A stretch of DNA of 64,000 nt from Escherichia coli (GTDB taxonomy: Bacteria; Pseudomonadota; Gammaproteobacteria; Enterobacterales; Enterobacteriaceae), in NCBI RefSeq assembly GCF_003334335.1, contig NZ_QOWQ01000028.1. One strand, 5' to 3'. The notes below the pieces were generated by a model. The model was not told the origin of the DNA. It saw only the letters and a program-made list of their open reading frames with translations, and ran no database searches. Every line of letters starts with the position of its first letter. Position 1 is the first letter of the stretch. Positions 1 to 9,246 of the stretch are shown piece by piece. Position numbers and translations under genes: made by a program.

Positions 1-210
1 CGTACCATTCAGAACTGGCAGGAACAGGGAATGCCCGTTCTGCGAGGCGGTGGCAAGGGTAATGAGGTGCTTTATGATTCTGCCGCCGTCATAAAATGGT
101 ATGCCGAAAGGGATGCTGAAATTGAGAACGAAAAGCTGCGCCGGGAAGTTGAAGAACTGCGGCAGGCCAGCGAGACAGATCTCCAGCCACCCGCGCTACG
201 GCATGGGTAA
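1..210 (+). pseudogene. nohA: Phage terminase small subunit (lambda Nu1-like) 3' fragment, truncated at both ends; stop at 208-210
   Basis: Frame-1 translation from base 1 reads RTIQNWQEQGMPVLRGGGKGNEVLYDSAAVIKWYAERDAEIENEKLRREVEELRQASE, matching lambda Nu1 as recalled, then diverges and stops; 5' end runs off the window. Confidence 0.75.
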
Positions 211-1468
211 ACGTCTTGGTGCGGCAGATGTGGATAAATGGGCGCTGTATGTCATCGGCCAGTGTTGCGACCAGTCGGTGCCGGACGGTTTTGGCGGCAC
301 GGAGCCGCGCATCACCTGTAATGCCTGGCTGACCACACAGCGTAAGGCGTGGGATGTTCTCAGTGATTTCTGCTCGGCGATGCGCTGTATGCCGGTATGG
401 AACGGGCAGACGCTGACGTTCGTGCAGGACCGACCATCAGATAAGGTGTGGACCTATAACCGCAGTAATGTGGTGATGCCGGATGATGGCGCGCCGTTCC
501 GCTACAGCTTCAGCGCCCTGAAGGACCGCCATAATGCCGTTGAGGTGAACTGGATTGACCCGGATAACGGCTGGGAGACGGCGACAGAGCTTGTGGAGGA
601 CACGCAGGCCATTGCCCGTTACGGTCGTAACGTCACGAAGATGGATGCCTTTGGCTGTACCAGGCGGGGGCAGGCGCACCGAGCCGGGCTGTGGCTGATT
701 AAAACGGAACTGCTGGAAACGCAGACCGTGGACTTCAGCGTGGGTGCCGAAGGGCTTCGCCATGTACCAGGTGATGTCATTGAAATCTGTGATGATGACT
801 ATGCGGGGATCAGCATCGGCGGGCGCGTGCTGGCGGTGAACAGCCAGACGCGGACACTGACGCTCGACCGTGAAATCACGCTGCCATCCTCCGGCACCAC
901 GCTGATAAGCCTGGTTGACGGGCAGGGTAATCCGGTGAGCGTGGAGGTCCAGTCCGTCACCGACGGCGTGAAGGTGAAAGTGAGCCGGGTTCCTGACGGC
1001 GTTGCCGAGTACAGCGTGTGGGGGCTGAAGCTGCCGACGCTGCGTCAGCGCCTGTTCCGCTGTGTGAGTATCCGTGAGAACGATGACGGTACGTATGCCA
1101 TCACTGCCGTGCAGCATGTACCGGAGAAAGAAGCCATCGTGGATAACGGGGCGCACTTTGACGGTGACCAGAGCGGCACGGTGAATGGTGTCACGCCGCC
1201 AGCAGTTCAGCACCTGACCGCAGAAGTCACCGCAGACAGCGGGGAATACCAGGTGCTGGCGCGCTGGGACACGCCGAAGGTGGTGAAGGGGGTGAGCTTT
1301 ATGCTTCGCCTGACCGTGGCAGCGGACGACGGCAGTGAGCGGTTGGTCAGCACGGCCCGGACGACGGAAACCACATATCGCTTCACGCAGCTGGCGCTGG
1401 GAAATTACAGGCTGACAGTCCGGGCGGTAAATGCATGGGGACAGCCGGTGCACATACCCATTCGATGA
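203..1468 (+). pseudogene. stfQ: Lambda J-like host-specificity (central tail fibre) protein internal fragment, no native N- or C-terminus
   Basis: ORF 101..1468: from residue ~35 (GKRLGAADVDKWALYVIGQ...) to ...RAVNAWGQ it follows the lambda J central region as recalled; J homology ends near 1444 and a stop follows 8 codons later; different frame from the upstream nohA remnant. Confidence 0.7.
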
Positions 1469-1743
1469 CATTTGTTTCAGGTGGTTCCAGTGGTGCTCCG
1501 GGAAGTGGATCACCTGATTATTCTAAATACAGTGTTAACACTTCTTCTGCAGGCGCTCATACGCACTCTGTATCGGGTACTGCTGCAAGCGCAGGTGCAC
1601 ACGCACATACTGTCGGTATTGGTGCTCATACGCACTCCGTTGCGATTGGTTCACATGGACATACCATCACCGTTAACGCTGCTGGTAACGCGGAAAACAC
1701 CGTCAAAAACATCGCATTTAACTATATTGTGAGGCTTGCATAA
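1435..1743 (+). CDS. Side tail-fibre C-terminal tip segment with repeated GAHTHS (HxH) motifs; out of frame with the upstream J-like fragment
   Basis: ORF 1435..1743 contains four G-A-H-[TA]-H-[ST] repeats typical of phage tail-fibre tips; its stop overlaps the tfaQ start (TAATG). Confidence 0.55.
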
Positions 1744-2318
1744 TGGCATTCAGAATGAGTGAACAACCACGGACCATAAAAATTTATAATCTGCTGGCCG
1801 GAACTAATGAATTTATTGGTGAAGGTGACGCATATATTCCGCCTCATACAGGTCTGCCAGCAAACAGTACCGATATTGCACCGCCAGATATTCCGGCAGG
1901 CTTCGTGGCTGTTTTCAACAGTGATGAGGCATCGTGGCATCTCGTTGAAGATCATCGGGGTAAAACGGTTTATGACGTGGCTTCCGGCGACGCGTTATTT
2001 ATTTCTGAACTCGGTCCGTTACCGGAAAATGTTACCTGGTTATCGCCGGGAGGGGAATATCAGAAGTGGAACGGCACAGCCTGGGTGAAGGATACGGAAG
2101 CAGAAAAACTGTTCCGGATCCGGGAGGCGGAAGAAACAAAAAACAGCCTGATGCAGATAGCCAGTGAGCATATAGCGCCGCTTCAGGATGCTGTGGATCT
2201 GGAGATCGCAACGGAGGAAGAAACCTTGTTGCTGGAAGCCTGGAAAAAGTATCGGGTGTTGCTGAACCGTGTTGATACATCAACTGCACCGGATATTGAA
2301 TGGCCAGCACTGCCGTAG
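1743..2318 (+). CDS. tfaQ: Prophage tail fibre assembly protein (Tfa family)
   Basis: 191 aa ORF recognised as Tfa-family; immediately follows the tail-fibre tip and is adjacent to an invertase. Confidence 0.85.
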
Positions 2319-2415
2319 GGTAAAACATATAAATTCTATAATTAGATGTATCTCTCCATTTACGGCAAGGAAGGGGGCTTGGAAGACGTAAAGCATCTCA
2401 CACCGAGATTATTTT

Positions 2416-3006
2416 TTATATGTCAGGTGTCTGAAGTTTTGCTTTGGCTCTTAAAATGGTTTGCCGCGAGGTTTTGAATTCCCGGGCAATGGCACTTATA
2501 CTTACACCTGACTTAATTCGTTCGAATACCACCTGTTTCTGTTCTTCATTTAACACAGGTGGTCGACCAAAACGTTTCCCTGCGCCGCGGGCTCTTACTA
2601 TCCCGGAATGAGTGCGTTCAAGTAAAAGGTCTCGTTCAAATTCAGCGACTGCTGAAATTACGTGCATCATCATTTTTCCTGTTGGACTGGTCAGGTCAAT
2701 GCCCCGCAATGCTAAGCAATGCACTCTGATACCTGTTTCGGTCAGTTGTTCCACTGTTTTCCTGATATCCATTGCATTACAACCAAGGCGATCCAGTTTT
2801 GTCACAATCAATTGATCACCACATTTCAGGCGAGCAAGCAACCGGTTAAAACCAGGACGCTCACTGGTTGCTGCTGAGCCGCTAATGTGTTCTTCGATTA
2901 TTTGCTGAGGTTTGATTTTAAAACCTGCACTTTCGATTTCCCGGCGTTGATTTTCGGTGGTCTGATCCAGCGTTGATATCCGACAGTAAGCAAAAATTCG
3001 AGACAT
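2416..3006 (-). CDS. pinQ: Serine-recombinase DNA invertase (Pin/Gin/Hin family)
   Basis: 196 aa ORF with N-terminal resolvase catalytic motif (YCRISTLDQ) and C-terminal HTH; recognised as PinQ. Confidence 0.9.
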
Positions 3007-3322
3007 AGTGAGACTCTATACGAAATTGGTGTTCATATCATAATGCATCTCAGAAAATAATTTTGATTATTTTTGTGCATATTTGTATGTACACGTTCGA
3101 AAATAAACGAATGCGTATGCAACCCCGTAACTTTGGTGAGACCCAAAATCGATTTTGTGAAAAATGGCTTTAACTCGGTTTGTTTTTCGAGTTCCGGGCG
3201 GACTCAAGGAAGAAGAATAGTGTTGCGTGTTATTTTAACCAGATTTCAAGTTGTTTGGTCGTGGAAAAGTGGAGCAAAATGTTGTTAAAGTGGAAAAATG
3301 ATAAAAAAGTAAGTTTATTATA

Positions 3323-3556
3323 TTACATTTTACCATTTAAATTTTGGTTGTCTTTAAGAACTGATATCGCTGTTTGTAATAATTCTTTGTTATCCAGCCA
3401 TGATTTTTTCTTTATGTTTCCTTCAATGTAATCAAGCAATGTTCTGGTATTGATAGGTCTTCCCTGTTTTGCTACTTCCACTACAGCATCCCCTAGGATA
3501 ATTCTGACTTCAGGAAGCTGCGCAGGGAACCACTTTAGGGTGTCTTTTGATTTCAT
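3323..3556 (-). CDS. ydfK: Small prophage-encoded protein YdfK (77 aa)
   Basis: ORF 3323..3589; start placed at the internal Met (MKSKDTLKWF...) preceded by AAGGAA RBS; matches YdfK/YnaE as recalled. Confidence 0.75.
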   Translation of the reverse strand: MKSKDTLKWFPAQLPEVRIILGDAVVEVAKQGRPINTRTLLDYIEGNIKKKSWLDNKELLQTAISVLKDNQNLNGKM

Positions 3557-4341
3557 GAATATATTCCTTAAAATATTATTGATTTTCATTGCGATATTGT
3601 ATGTCTGATTCAGGATATGTTGACTTATACATCGGTTTTGTCTGGGTTATTGGATATGCCAATCCCTAATTTTATTAGAGCATGACTAAAAATGCTGAAT
3701 ATGATAAGGAGCGAAGTGATTATCAGTATGCTGTTCATATAGCCTCGAATTAATAATGTGTTATATATGATATAGTTGACAATTTTTATCCTGGGTGTTC
3801 TTAAAGTTCGTAGATAAACATTGTCGTTTCAGGTATACAGGAATGCTAACAGATGGCGGCAAAAATCAGGCGGTTTATGGCGCAAGCTGAAGTGGCAACT
3901 GCAAACTATCTTATGCAGAGACTCTACACGGATTGGGTTTAAAAGTATACATAGATAACAGTTTTTATCTGAAGAAGAAAAATATCAAGGTGATATAGCC
4001 TATATGCCTTTGATGTGGAGGAATGAATGTGATGGGAGTGATGTATCTGAATAGTTGAAAAACCGCAGACACGCCTTATGCAAGAACGTGCTGCGGTTGG
4101 CTGGTAAATTTTTCGATAGTGCGAGTATTGAATGATTTCCAGCCGTTATTGATTTTACGCGTAACTCCATGAAAAAACTACTTATCTGTTGAGGAGTTTT
4201 TTTGGGGCATATATGGGACAGAAATGGGCCCCAGATAGACACTGAGATCGAACTTAGGATGCTTTTTAAAAAATGCAACTATCTGAAAAAACCTAGAAAA
4301 CGCCAAGGAAACCACAGGATGGGAAAAAACACCTGTGAATT

Positions 4342-5625
4342 ATGGATTTCCAGTTATATTCGCTCGGCGCAGCGTTAGTGTTTCATGAAATATTTTTTCC
4401 TGAATCATCAACGGCAATGGCGTTAATTCTGGCAATGGGAACCTACGGTGCAGGTTATGTGGCGCGTATTGTCGGAGCATTTATTTTCGGCAAAATGGGC
4501 GACAGAATAGGGCGTAAAAAAGTGCTCTTTATTACCATCACCATGATGGGGATCTGTACCACCTTAATTGGTGTGTTACCGACCTATGCACAGATTGGTG
4601 TTTTTGCACCCATCTTGCTGGTGACGTTGCGTATTATTCAGGGGTTGGGTGCAGGTGCGGAAATTTCCGGTGCCGGTACGATGCTGGCGGAATATGCGCC
4701 AAAAGGTAAGCGCGGAATTATCTCCTCATTTGTGGCTATGGGAACTAACTGCGGAACCTTGAGCGCAACGGCAATCTGGGCCTTTATGTTCTTCATTCTC
4801 AGTAAAGAGGAACTGCTGGCGTGGGGATGGCGTATACCGTTCCTGGCGAGTGTTGTCGTGATGGTCTTTGCTATCTGGTTGCGTATGAATCTGAAAGAAA
4901 GCCCGGTCTTTGAGAAGGTTAACGACAGTAACCAACCGACAGCAAAACCTGCACCTGCTGGTAGCATGTTCCAGAGCAAATCCTTCTGGCTGGCAACAGG
5001 GCTGCGTTTTGGTCAGGCGGGTAACTCCGGGTTAATTCAGACTTTCCTTGCAGGCTATTTAGTGCAGACGTTATTGTTTAACAAAGCAATTCCAACAGAT
5101 GCATTGATGATCAGTTCGATTCTCGGCTTTATGACCATTCCGTTCCTTGGTTGGTTATCCGATAAAATTGGTCGCCGGATCCCGTATATTATTATGAATA
5201 CCTCCGCGATTGTGCTGGCATGGCCAATGCTTTCTATCATTGTAGATAAAAGCTATGCCCCGAGCACCATTATGGTTGCACTGATTGTGATTCATAACTG
5301 TGCGGTGCTGGGATTATTTGCTCTGGAAAACATTACCATGGCAGAAATGTTCGGCTGTAAAAACCGCTTTACCCGGATGGCTATTTCTAAAGAAATTGGT
5401 GGTCTTATCGCTTCCGGTTTTGGTCCTATCCTGGCGGGTATTTTCTGCACCATGACGGAATCCTGGTATCCGATCGCCATTATGATCATGGCATATTCAG
5501 TGATTGGTTTAATCTCTGCGCTGAAAATGCCAGAGGTGAAAGACCGTGATTTAAGTGCGCTGGAAGACGCTGCGGAAGATCAACCGCGTGTTGTAAGAGC
5601 TGCGCAACCTTCCAGAAGTCTGTAA
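4342..5625 (+). CDS. ydfJ: MFS-family transporter, probably 5'-truncated at the prophage boundary
   Basis: 427 aa multi-TM ORF with MFS loop motif GKMGDRIGRKK only ~55 residues from the N-terminus, suggesting a missing first helix; followed by an intrinsic terminator. Confidence 0.8.
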   Translation: MDFQLYSLGAALVFHEIFFPESSTAMALILAMGTYGAGYVARIVGAFIFGKMGDRIGRKKVLFITITMMGICTTLIGVLPTYAQIGVFAPILLVTLRIIQGLGAGAEISGAGTMLAEYAPKGKRGIISSFVAMGTNCGTLSATAIWAFMFFILSKEELLAWGWRIPFLASVVVMVFAIWLRMNLKESPVFEKVNDSNQPTAKPAPAGSMFQSKSFWLATGLRFGQAGNSGLIQTFLAGYLVQTLLFNKAIPTDALMISSILGFMTIPFLGWLSDKIGRRIPYIIMNTSAIVLAWPMLSIIVDKSYAPSTIMVALIVIHNCAVLGLFALENITMAEMFGCKNRFTRMAISKEIGGLIASGFGPILAGIFCTMTESWYPIAIMIMAYSVIGLISALKMPEVKDRDLSALEDAAEDQPRVVRAAQPSRSL

Positions 5626-5633
5626 ACCCTTAA

Positions 5634-5663
5634 TCCCTTCTCTTACCGGAGAGGGGATTTTTA
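5634..5663 (+). terminator. Rho-independent terminator after ydfJ
   Basis: 9-bp stem TCCCTTCTC/GAGAGGGGA with one G-U pair, then TTTTT. Confidence 0.6.
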
Positions 5664-5713
5664 TTCATATAACAAAACATATAGCTTGCCATATTTATAT
5701 TTAAGGAATTGTT

Positions 5714-7174
5714 ATGGGAAATAATTTGTTATCAGCAAAAGCGACACTCCCTGTTTATGATCGTAATAACCTGGCTCCAAGAATTGTTCATTTAGGCTTT
5801 GGTGCATTTCACCGTGCGCATCAGGGTGTGTATGCCGATATTCTTGCTACGGAACATTTCAGTGACTGGGGATATTATGAGGTCAACTTAATCGGCGGCG
5901 AACAGCAAATTGCCGATTTACAACAGCAAGATAATCTTTATACCGTTGCGGAAATGTCGGCCGATGTGTGGACGGCTCGCGTCGTTGGCGTCGTTAAAAA
6001 AGCCTTGCACGTACAGATAGATGGCTTAGAAACCGTGTTGGCAGCGATGTGTGAACCGCAAATCGCGATTGTCTCTCTGACAATCACCGAAAAAGGGTAT
6101 TTCCACTCTCCGGCGACCGGACAGTTAATGCTCGATCACCCGATGGTAGCTGCCGACGTGCAAAATCCCCACCAGCCGAAAACAGCAACAGGGGTGATTG
6201 TTGAGGCGCTGGCTCGCCGTAAAGCGGCAGGACTTCCCGCATTTACCGTCATGTCATGTGACAACATGCCAGAAAACGGTCATGTTATGCGTGACGTTGT
6301 CACTTCCTACGCACAAGCCGTTGATGTAAAACTGGCACAATGGATCGAAGATAACGTGACTTTCCCATCAACAATGGTGGACCGTATTGTGCCCGCAGTG
6401 ACAGAGGATACGCTGGCGAAAATCGAACAACTTACCGGTGTGCGCGATCCTGCGGGCGTTGCCTGTGAACCTTTCCGCCAGTGGGTAATAGAAGATAACT
6501 TTGTTGCCGGACGTCCGGAATGGGAAAAAGCGGGAGCCGAACTGGTTAGCGATGTGCTGCCTTATGAAGAGATGAAGTTGCGCATGCTCAACGGCAGTCA
6601 TTCATTCCTGGCGTATCTGGGGTATCTTGCAGGATATCAGCACATTAATGACTGTATGGAAGATGAACATTATCGTTATGCGGCGTATGGCTTGATGTTG
6701 CAGGAACAAGCGCCGACGTTGAAAGTGCAGGGCGTTGATTTGCAAGATTACGCTAACCGATTAATTGCACGCTATAGCAACCCGGCGTTACGTCATCGAA
6801 CCTGGCAGATTGCGATGGATGGTAGCCAGAAATTGCCACAGCGGATGTTGGATTCTGTTCGCTGGCATCTGGCGCATGACAGCAAGTTCGATCTGCTGGC
6901 GCTGGGCGTCGCGGGTTGGATGCGTTATGTCGGTGGTGTTGATGAACAGGGAAATCCGATAGAAATCAGTGACCCACTGTTACCTGTTATTCAGAAGGCT
7001 GTACAAAGTAGTGCCGAAGGGAAAGCGCGCGTCCAGTCATTGCTGGCGATTAAGGCGATCTTTGGTGATGATTTGCCAGACAATAGTTTGTTTACTGCAA
7101 GAGTGACGGAAACGTACTTGTCTTTATTAGCGCATGGCGCGAAAGCGACCGTGGCAAAATATTCCGTGAAGTAA
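5714..7174 (+). CDS. ydfI: Mannitol dehydrogenase family oxidoreductase (mannonate/altronate oxidoreductase-like)
   Basis: 486 aa ORF; N-terminal Rossmann-type motif ([13 protein letters not shown]); recognised as YdfI. Confidence 0.85.
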
Positions 7175-7201
7175 AAAAGCAATGCCGCCATCGGCGGCAT
7201 T
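7172..7201 (-). terminator. Hairpin terminator serving ydfZ (minus strand), shared with the ydfI 3' end
   Basis: Stem AATGCCGCC/GGCGGCATT with loop ATCG; T-run on the minus strand. Confidence 0.55.
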
Positions 7202-7208
7202 CACACGC

Positions 7209-7412
7209 TTAGTTCATGCCGAGACGAATCAGGTCCAGTGGTGCCAGTTTCTCTTCACAACCTTCAACAACTACGGTTTTTCCGCGGCGGATTTGCTCAG
7301 CGGTCAGACCTTCAGTATCAATCGACAGGATCTTGCCAGTGTGACCGGTGCCGCTAACCATAACACGGCTGCCAGTGGTGATTGCGTTACGGTTACGATC
7401 GTAGGTCGTCAT
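7209..7412 (-). CDS. ydfZ: Small protein YdfZ (67 aa)
   Basis: 67 aa ORF matching YdfZ as recalled. Confidence 0.8.
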
Positions 7413-7588
7413 AGGTGTTTTCTCCTTTCTGATTTACAGTCGAAGCCCACGTAACGGGCGCAATATAAATACTCCTGTCGAGTGAAATATTTTTTGTTTT
7501 TGATCAAGCTCACATCTTTTTTGATGCATGCATGAGCCATAAGGCGGGGGAAAAGACTCTCACCCCGGATGGGATGAGAGGAAATGAA

Positions 7589-8275
7589 TTACTCTTCGCT
7601 AAACCAGTCGCTGTTTTCCTGGCGGATCTGGCGCACGGATTCGCTGATTTCCTGCAAATGTTGCGTCATTGCACGTTCTACCGCATCGCCATCACGTTTT
7701 TGCAGGGCAGAGAAAATATCAAGATGCTGGCGTAACAGCATTTCTGGTGGAGAAACGTGGTCGAAACTCATATAGCGCACGCGATCAACGGTCGCTTTCA
7801 GGTTCTCAATGGTATCCCACGCCAGTTGACAGTCGGCAATCTGCGTCAGGAGTTGATGGAAGTTGTCATCAAGTTCAAAAAAATCATCCAGTTGCTTGCG
7901 CTCAATGGCAATGCGTTGCTGGTGAAGATTTTGTTCCAGTTGATAGCACTGGCTTTCGGTAATCATGCTCGCCGCCCGACGCGCCACCGCGCACTCAATG
8001 GCCTGACGGATAAAACTGCCGTTGCGCACCTGGGCCATGGAAATTTTGTTGACGTAGCTGCCACGTTGCGGACGAATTTGAATCAGGCCGTTTTCCGCCA
8101 GTTTAATAAAGGCTTCACGAACCGGCTGGCGTGACACATTGAAACGAACAGAAACTTCTTTTTCCGACAACGGTGTGCCTGGAGCAATCAGGCAATGGAC
8201 AATGTCGCGACGAAGAATACGATAAATCTGCTGATTGACAGGCTGTGTGGGATTAAGTTGCGTTTCGACGGTCAT
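7589..8275 (-). CDS. ydfH: GntR/FadR-family transcriptional regulator
   Basis: 228 aa ORF with N-terminal winged HTH and FadR-type C-terminal domain; recognised as YdfH (RspR). Confidence 0.85.
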
Positions 8276-8363
8276 TCGTTCTTGCTTGTGAGTGAGTTAA
8301 CTGCATGAGTCTACCACTTTTTTGTGACAAGCAATAACCCGGCAGTTACGCCGGGTATAAAAA

Positions 8364-9110
8364 TTACTGACGGTGGACATTCAGTCCGGCATAGCTTTGG
8401 GTAACCGGCATCATTTCCAGGGTATTGATATTGACGTGAGCAGGCAGCGTTGACACCCACCAGACGGCTTCGCTGACATCTTCTGGCGTCAATGCAACGG
8501 TATTTTGATAGGTTTTTTCTGCTTTACCGTCATCGCCTTTAAAGCGGACATTGGAAAACTCGGTACCACCCACCAGACCCGGTTCGATGTCGGTGACGCG
8601 CACCGCCGTACCATGCAGATCCGTACGCAGATTCAGGCTAAACTGACGAACAAACGCTTTCGTCGCACCGTAAACGTTACCACCGGCATACGGCCAGCTA
8701 CCTGCCGTTGAGCCAATGTTAATAATATGACCATGATTACGTTCAACCATACCCGGTAAGACGGCGCGCGTCATATATACCAGGCCTTTGTTGTTGGTAT
8801 CAATCATCGTTTCCCAGTCTTCAACGCTGGCTTTATGCGCAGGCTCCATGCCCAACGCCAGGCCGGCATTATTTACCAGGATATCAATATTGCACCACTC
8901 GGCAGGAAGCGATGCCAGCATCTCTTCAATAGCGGCGCGGTTGCGAACGTCCAGTTGGGCGATATACAGATTATCTCCCAGTTCGTCTTTTAACTCCTGC
9001 AACCGTTCCTGGCGACGGCCAGTGGCGATAACTTTATGCCCTTGTTGAATAAAACGACGAGTAATGCATTCACCAAAACCTGCCGTTGCTCCAGTTACTA
9101 AAACGATCAT
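8364..9110 (-). CDS. ydfG: NADP-dependent 3-hydroxy acid dehydrogenase (short-chain dehydrogenase/reductase)
   Basis: SDR motifs TGATAGFG and YxxxK; start placed at MIVLVTG with AGGA RBS, giving 248 aa. Confidence 0.85.
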   Translation of the reverse strand: MIVLVTGATAGFGECITRRFIQQGHKVIATGRRQERLQELKDELGDNLYIAQLDVRNRAAIEEMLASLPAEWCNIDILVNNAGLALGMEPAHKASVEDWETMIDTNNKGLVYMTRAVLPGMVERNHGHIINIGSTAGSWPYAGGNVYGATKAFVRQFSLNLRTDLHGTAVRVTDIEPGLVGGTEFSNVRFKGDDGKAEKTYQNTVALTPEDVSEAVWWVSTLPAHVNINTLEMMPVTQSYAGLNVHRQ

Positions 9111-9246
9111 CTCACTGTTCCTCAACGCTTTTGTGTGTCAATAACATAGCACGGGATGCTTAAGAGCGGGTAATACTGGATTGCAAGATTGCACTCCGTT
9201 ATCAGTAAGCCTACGCTATGGAACACCTCGCGTTCAGGAGAAGAAA

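Follow-up and report, generated by a model that had tools for sequence, protein, structure and literature searches.

Debris of phage late genes at the probable end of the defective Escherichia coli prophage Qin, and sister alleles that point to stepwise deletion at short repeats

Three phage gene fragments and their junctions

The window, by which we mean the whole 64,000-nucleotide stretch of DNA analyzed here, begins inside a remnant of a phage terminase small-subunit gene. This is followed by an internal fragment of the tail-tip gene J and the tip of a side tail fibre gene (stf), all of which lie within the first 1,743 positions. An intact tail fibre assembly gene (tfaQ), an intact serine DNA invertase gene (pinQ) on the opposite strand, and a truncated host gene (ydfJ) come next (Table 1).

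Table 1. Features of the window, alleles of the same prophage end, and loci with a deletion endpoint at the Nu1 3' end. Positions refer to the window in the upper rows; the left sides of the alleles are given in lambda coordinates.
Feature	Position or genome	Strand	Details
Nu1/nohA-homologue remnant (terminase small subunit)	1..189	+	lambda Nu1 codons 17-79, frame 1
Junction 1	187..189	.	3-bp microhomology CCA; Nu1 side lambda 425-427, J side lambda 16347-16349
J internal fragment (tail-tip/host-specificity)	187..1445	+	lambda J residues 282-700 of 1132, frame 2
Junction 2	1442..1445	.	4-bp microhomology CAGC; J (lambda about 17605-17608) / side tail fibre gene 300 nt before its stop
Side tail fibre C-terminal tip	1442..1743	+	last 100 codons, repeated His-x-His motifs, frame 1
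tfaQ, intact tail fibre assembly gene	1743..2318	+	191 aa; ORF listing, annotation, profile match
pinQ, intact serine DNA invertase gene	2416..3006	-	196 aa; ORF listing, annotation, profile match
ydfJ, 5'-truncated (MFS transporter)	4342..5625	+	ORF listing, annotation, K-12 alignment; Qin right boundary ~4350
ORF at right flank	5714-7174		ORF listing; supports placement at the ydfJ site
Allele A	FDAARGOS_1337		Nu1 to 699, TACC, J from 16135; junction 2 present
Allele B	window type		Nu1 to 427, CCA, J from 16347; junction 2 present
Allele C	FORC 064		Nu1 to about 697, GATA, J from 17302; junction 2 present
Allele D	300709		five junctions: 703/2177, 3501/5294, 5626/9780, 10687/15668, then junction 2
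Allele E	ETEC4073		intact nohA, then 956/13434 and 13575/16534; junction 2 present
Loci with an endpoint at the Nu1 3' end	L007 4369-4372, L008 about 5763, L010 about 4572, L012 about 3100, L033, L069, L102, L126

The terminase piece aligns with lambda 239-427 at 98.4% nucleotide identity, and its translation matches lambda Nu1 at E=4e-45; the start of the gene lies 47 bp upstream of the window. Functional Nu1 has ~181 aa, including a C-terminal region that binds gpA, and the remnant reaches residue 79 at most before ending in seven foreign codons and a stop. Its 59-aa ORF runs into J-derived DNA and stops at 208-210. An earlier note, made from the sequence without database searches, had described a Nu1-like remnant with this stop, and both nucleotide and protein alignments to lambda Nu1 bear it out.

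The J piece is 92.6% identical in nucleotides to lambda 16347-17608 and 98.3% identical to the J gene of mEp460, and the match extends to 1448 with one mismatch. Its translation is 95% identical to the corresponding residues of lambda J. A working J (TipJ) protein of 1132 aa comprises an N-terminal hub and a C-terminal receptor-binding part, and only residues 282-700 are retained here. Consistent with this, the only Pfam domains found are Phage-tail_3 and Ig_J, and PHROG 31 is matched over profile positions 544-951 of 1565 alone. The ORF at 203..1468 is therefore, as the earlier note had proposed, an internal fragment of J and not a full-length family member. That note placed the beginning of the J-like segment at about 203, which is merely the first ATG inside J; homology to J begins at 187/188.

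The fibre tip is equivalent to the C-terminal 100 residues of an Stf protein of 1075 aa (99% amino acid identity, E=1e-63). More broadly, window 1442-2305 has its counterpart in the intact lambda-like prophage of strain B27, in the last part of a 3,228-nt stf gene together with its tfa. A functional Stf carries an N-terminal tail-attachment domain and a shaft in addition to the tip, and here the tip is all that is left. It can be read as a 102-aa ORF (1435-1743) whose ATG comes from J-derived DNA and whose stop overlaps the tfaQ start (ATAATG). At position 1740, in the last alanine codon of the tip, the window has a synonymous A, as do K-12 and intact stf genes at the equivalent position; the A-type, B-type (CFS3292), and C-type genomes examined have G.

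The three segments do abut as claimed earlier, with similarities far beyond chance, and each of the two joins shifts the reading frame. They do not, however, occupy three different frames, since Nu1 codons from position 1 and tip codons from 1441 are both in frame 1 and J codons from 188 are in frame 2. Because the pieces are mutually out of frame, only short chimeric ORFs remain. ORF 101-1468 (455 aa), which contains the J fragment, takes its first 29 codons from out-of-frame Nu1 DNA and its last seven from out-of-frame stf DNA.

Base-level alignment places junction 1 just outside the bracket of about 190-210 suggested before, and junction 2 within the bracket of 1440-1470. Microhomology, which the earlier note had proposed looking for, is present at both joins and amounts to 3-4 bp (CCA and CAGC). 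With so few bases shared at the crossover and the parent sequences otherwise unrelated, both junctions have the form expected of short-homology illegitimate recombination. This agrees with the earlier claim of at least two deletion or illegitimate recombination junctions, and the sister alleles described below indicate at least three events. The observation behind that claim is thus partly confirmed, and its interpretation is supported as essentially right, with small corrections.

Could the chimeric order instead be an assembly artefact, or the natural gene arrangement of a viable phage? We regard either as next to impossible, having found nothing in favor of them. Junction 1 occurs as an uninterrupted single match at 100% identity in 25 independent complete E. 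coli genomes, and junction 2 in 90 of 5,426. The whole Nu1/J/stf-tip arrangement was absent from 50,697 phage records, none of which covered more than 53% of window 1-2400; the records match either the J part alone or the fibre/tfa part alone. J, lom, and stf each form a complete gene of their own in lambda, mEp460, and the B27 prophage. In lambda and B27, J and stf lie ~5 kb apart with lom between them, and in the window truncated parts of the two are joined directly. The J-like and tip segments are thus not naturally separate genes of intact relatives, which would have spoken against the earlier note. Measured against B27, junction 2 represents a loss of 4,958 bp, namely the 3' 1.3 kb of J, the whole of lom, and the 5' 2.9 kb of stf. 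Automated annotation (PGAP) also marks all three pieces as partial pseudogenes.

An Rfam scan of window 1-1743 found no RNA family, and the promoter and terminator scan gave weak consensus matches only. Elsewhere in the window, full-length Rfam matches were seen to IS009 (RF02111; 2086-2284, + strand, within the 3' portion of tfaQ; 221 bits, gathering score 117) and to the Hfq-binding sRNA STnc560 (RF01407; 13679-13892, + strand, 281 bits).

Placement within Qin and comparison with K-12

We estimate a probability of about 0.88 that window 1-1743 is debris from the late-gene end of the defective E. coli prophage Qin, inserted in ydfJ. In the near-identical strain CFS3292, PGAP lists a "terminase small subunit" pseudogene lacking its C-terminus, a "host specificity protein J" pseudogene lacking both termini, and a "tail fiber protein" pseudogene lacking its N-terminus. 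After them come intact tfaQ, pinQ, ydfK, and ynfT and then truncated ydfJ and ydfI, which is the gene order annotated for the right arm of Qin in K-12. The remainder of the Qin gene set, ynfO, ydfO, gnsB, and cspI, lies upstream of the remnant; these genes fall outside the window and were seen in CFS3292. Beyond the right end, annotation of CFS3292-like genomes and of K-12 gives ydfI, ydfZ, and rspR, as expected for an insertion in ydfJ. Further to the right than the truncated MFS transporter gene, the ORF listing of the window includes a gene of the mannitol-dehydrogenase family. From position 1555 onward, the window aligns with K-12 at 99.2%, and this alignment places the boundary between Qin and ydfJ near window 4350. 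CFS3292 also has, upstream of the part shared with the window, an ISApl1 (IS30-family) transposase gene just after rzpQ (L001 4207-5181) in a Qin that is otherwise of the window type. Its rzpQ (3720-4202) is 483 nt long, compared to 498 nt in K-12.

A megablast search of 5,426 complete E. coli genomes returned matches to window 1-2400 at 99.9-100% identity, and in only 40 of these genomes was at least 80% of that segment covered at one place. Qin has been described as varying in size from strain to strain (PMC6379469). The remnant itself is ordinary and already known, its pieces being annotated as pseudogenes in public genomes.

Compared to the late operon of lambda (Nu1, J, lom, stf, tfa), each piece in the window is 92-98% identical in nucleotides and the gene order is the same, but lambda 428-16346 is missing, as are lom, the C-terminal region of J, and the greater part of stf. 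Loss of genes A through I, of the receptor-binding part of J, and of stf is enough to prevent virion formation. To this extent, the earlier suggestion that the junctions explain why the element is cryptic holds, since the loss of head and tail genes suffices for the defect. These deletions need not have been its first or sole cause; Qin of K-12 also has a broken integrase. Given their truncation, frame disruption, and variable retention among alleles, the fragments are probably non-functional.

Qin of K-12 (nohA-stfQ-tfaQ-pinQ, b1545-b1548) occupies the same ydfJ insertion site with the same flanking genes (ynfO, ydfO, tfaQ, pinQ, ydfK, ydfJ', and ydfI), and both versions contain Nu1 and fibre remnants followed by intact tfaQ and pinQ. 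They differ in what lies between. In K-12, Nu1 extends to lambda 719, a 320-codon stfQ follows immediately, and no J fragment intervenes, whereas the window allele has Nu1 to lambda 427, 1.26 kb of J, and only 100 stf codons. Judging from these sequences, neither allele can be converted into the other by deletion alone. The segment from cos/Nu1 to attR, which is complete in CFS3292 (L001 7500-12400) and corresponds to about 1 to 4350 of the window, is 1-4% divergent from K-12, while the Qin interior and ydfJ/ydfI are at least 99.9% identical. Because the end segment diverges between two nearly identical flanks, this suggests that it was replaced by recombination in either the K-12 or the window-type lineage.

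Sister alleles and a proposed order of deletions

To the window type we compared four other Qin-end alleles, all of them at the Qin locus and in backgrounds that match the window at 99.8% identity or more. Junction 2 was contiguous and near-identical in all five, and their left sides differed (Table 1). This common possession indicates that junction 2 is the oldest event and that the left side was eroded several times independently. The length of J retained, as annotated by PGAP, varied across the alleles (1938, 1467, 1260, 1071, and 303 nt), which fits neutral decay. Attempts to polarize the alleles by SNPs yielded four variable sites over 1.2 kb, too few for a tree, and three of the four form a cluster seen only in FORC064.

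A close relative of the window type is the FDAARGOS_1337 allele, which keeps nearly all of Nu1. Removing exactly 480 bp from it reproduces window 1-2409 with a single mismatch in 2,409 positions, and the window-type genome CFS3292 is identical to FDAARGOS_1337 over a further 4.1 kb. The same Nu1 (lambda 699)/J (lambda 16135) junction is also found in E. coli B REL606, at 95.9% identity over 2 kb, which indicates that it is old. There it lies in DLP12, a different prophage at a different chromosomal locus, again with nearly full Nu1 and, unlike in the window, with J running through to its end and a full stf.

RecA-independent illegitimate recombination at short-repeat junctions, whether by replication slippage or by microhomology-mediated joining, is an established process. 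The homologies, breakpoints, microhomologies, and sister alleles can be seen directly, and from them we infer the order of events and a mechanism of slippage or microhomology-mediated end joining. In our proposed history, a starting order of Nu1-A-W-B-...-J-lom-stf-tfa would have been cut down by such recombination at very short direct repeats. The oldest step would be a ~5.0-kb deletion from CAGC in J to CAGC near the end of stf, after which J lacked its receptor-binding C-terminus, lom was gone, and only the last 100 codons of stf were left. A ~15.4-kb deletion from TACC at the Nu1 3' end (lambda 696-699) to TACC in J (lambda 16138-16141) would then have taken out every head gene and, with them, the tail genes (A through I), a state that would survive in FDAARGOS_1337. 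Finally, a 480-bp deletion between two CCA triplets would have eliminated the junction made by the second step and created the join at 187-189.

The last of these steps could be challenged. A direct deletion of ~15.9 kb (15,922 bp; lambda 428-16349) from a fuller ancestor, with no FDAARGOS_1337-type intermediate, would leave junction 1 with an identical sequence. Large deletions have occurred independently at this locus several times, as ETEC4073 and 300709 (with its five junctions) illustrate, and junction 2 must once have been carried by a fuller ancestor whose background was near-identical, 300709 being a known fuller allele. Yet the window differs from FDAARGOS_1337 by nothing more than a clean 480-bp gap and one SNP in 2.4 kb, and the FDAARGOS_1337-type junction is old, being present at ~96% identity in DLP12 of REL606. 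Moreover, a slip of 480 bp is far more modest than an additional, independent deletion of 16 kb within that recent lineage. We therefore consider the single large deletion conceivable but rather doubtful, and hold that a later deletion of 480 bp probably gave rise to junction 1 as it now stands, erasing the older 15.4-kb Nu1/J junction.

Recurrent endpoints, an orphan invertase, and the fate of the fibre end

The second step of this history would have one endpoint at the 3' end of Nu1, a part deleted in the window. As a separate observation, left deletion endpoints cluster there (lambda 697-720), just upstream of the gene A start. At least seven different right-hand partners follow GAACTGATA (lambda 689-697) either immediately or after two further bases (CC), and these occur at Qin, DLP12, a prophage at the attλ locus, and viral-contig loci. 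IMG/VR was scanned with an 18-mer ending at the Nu1 3' site, and 120 loci among the matches listed were examined. Among these listed matches, 6 of the 27 loci with broken lambda colinearity break within the 24 bp of lambda 697-720, compared to ~0.1 breaks expected if breaks fell uniformly across the examined 5.7 kb; these loci are not mutually independent, and both figures should be read in that light. Recurrent breaks with different partners were also seen among the listed matches at lambda 880, 1646-1650, 2268-2271, and 3467-3470. A right endpoint recurs too: the right-hand partner of the K-12 nohA/stfQ join, ACCGCGCTGACAGACAATACGCAGG (L002, reverse strand near 7848), starts at the same base in IMG/VR locus L048, where it is joined to lambda 880 instead of 719.

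We tried several explanations for the cluster at the level of local sequence. Folding of single-stranded DNA at the Nu1 3' end gave no hairpin, the fold being no better than that of shuffled sequence (z = -0.46), and the motif GATANNGGGG was not significantly in excess in lambda (two copies vs. 0.56 expected). A Chi-like sequence, GCTGGATG, lies just upstream of the cluster; it is two positions off Chi and its orientation presumably gives no clear prediction, so it was rejected as well. Candidate causes include a mutational hotspot, selection, and the re-use of old junctions.

The intact invertase gene next to the remnant offered another possible source of rearrangement. No pix-like crossover site was found in window 1-3200 with up to three mismatches, the sole match in the whole window (at 40537) being at chance level, and no inverted repeat suitable for an invertible segment was found. 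The region thus lacks the invertible tail-fibre segment that accompanies Din-family invertases in e14, Mu, and P1, and pinQ is an orphan invertase with neither a pix-like site nor an invertible segment adjacent to it. Invertase crossover was accordingly rejected as the origin of either the junctions or an invertible segment. In K-12, PinQ was reported in 2025 to work in trans, inverting the e14 P segment, with a chimeric fibre protein keeping T2 from adsorbing (PMC12529663). That study found no inversion within Qin itself (PMC12529663), in agreement with the lack of pix-like sites near the remnant.

Might the fibre end have been retained for a function? On such a reading, the 102-aa tip ORF, TfaQ, and PinQ would form a domesticated module under selection, with the Nu1 and J pieces as neutral debris; a tip folded by TfaQ, for example, might mask a surface receptor against incoming phages. 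The block of tip, tfaQ, and pinQ is identical in all five alleles even as their left sides decay differently, and the ORF that junction 2 brought into being (1435-1743) begins with ATG and ends in a stop coupled to the start of tfaQ. PinQ of K-12 is, moreover, reportedly active, conferring resistance to T2 by way of the chimeric e14 tail-fibre protein (PMC12529663). However, the alleles are ~99.9% identical, and conservation among them is therefore uninformative about selection. Inspection by eye reveals no convincing ribosome-binding site ahead of 1435, the promoter scan found no promoter-like site on the + strand near 1435, and PGAP calls the tip a pseudogene. The published effect of PinQ, moreover, acts via e14 rather than the Qin fibre genes (PMC12529663). 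We consider selection on such a module very unlikely. Only slight credence goes to the broader suggestion that the remnant may be a retained anti-phage or surface-masking module (tip ORF, TfaQ, and PinQ) and, separately, that the Nu1 3' end (lambda 697-720) may be a true deletion hotspot in lambda-like prophages. If true, retention of the module would explain why the block is kept in every allele despite many independent decays of the left side.

The reading of window 1-1743 as late-gene debris of Qin remains the one we favor. Taken alone, this remnant matters little and is an example of prophage decay in a well-studied element. Together with the K-12 form, though, the Qin-end alleles, at least five of them and all in near-identical backgrounds, document step-by-step loss at repeats of 3-4 bp, and such an allele series can be used to calibrate the rates and mechanisms of prophage erosion.
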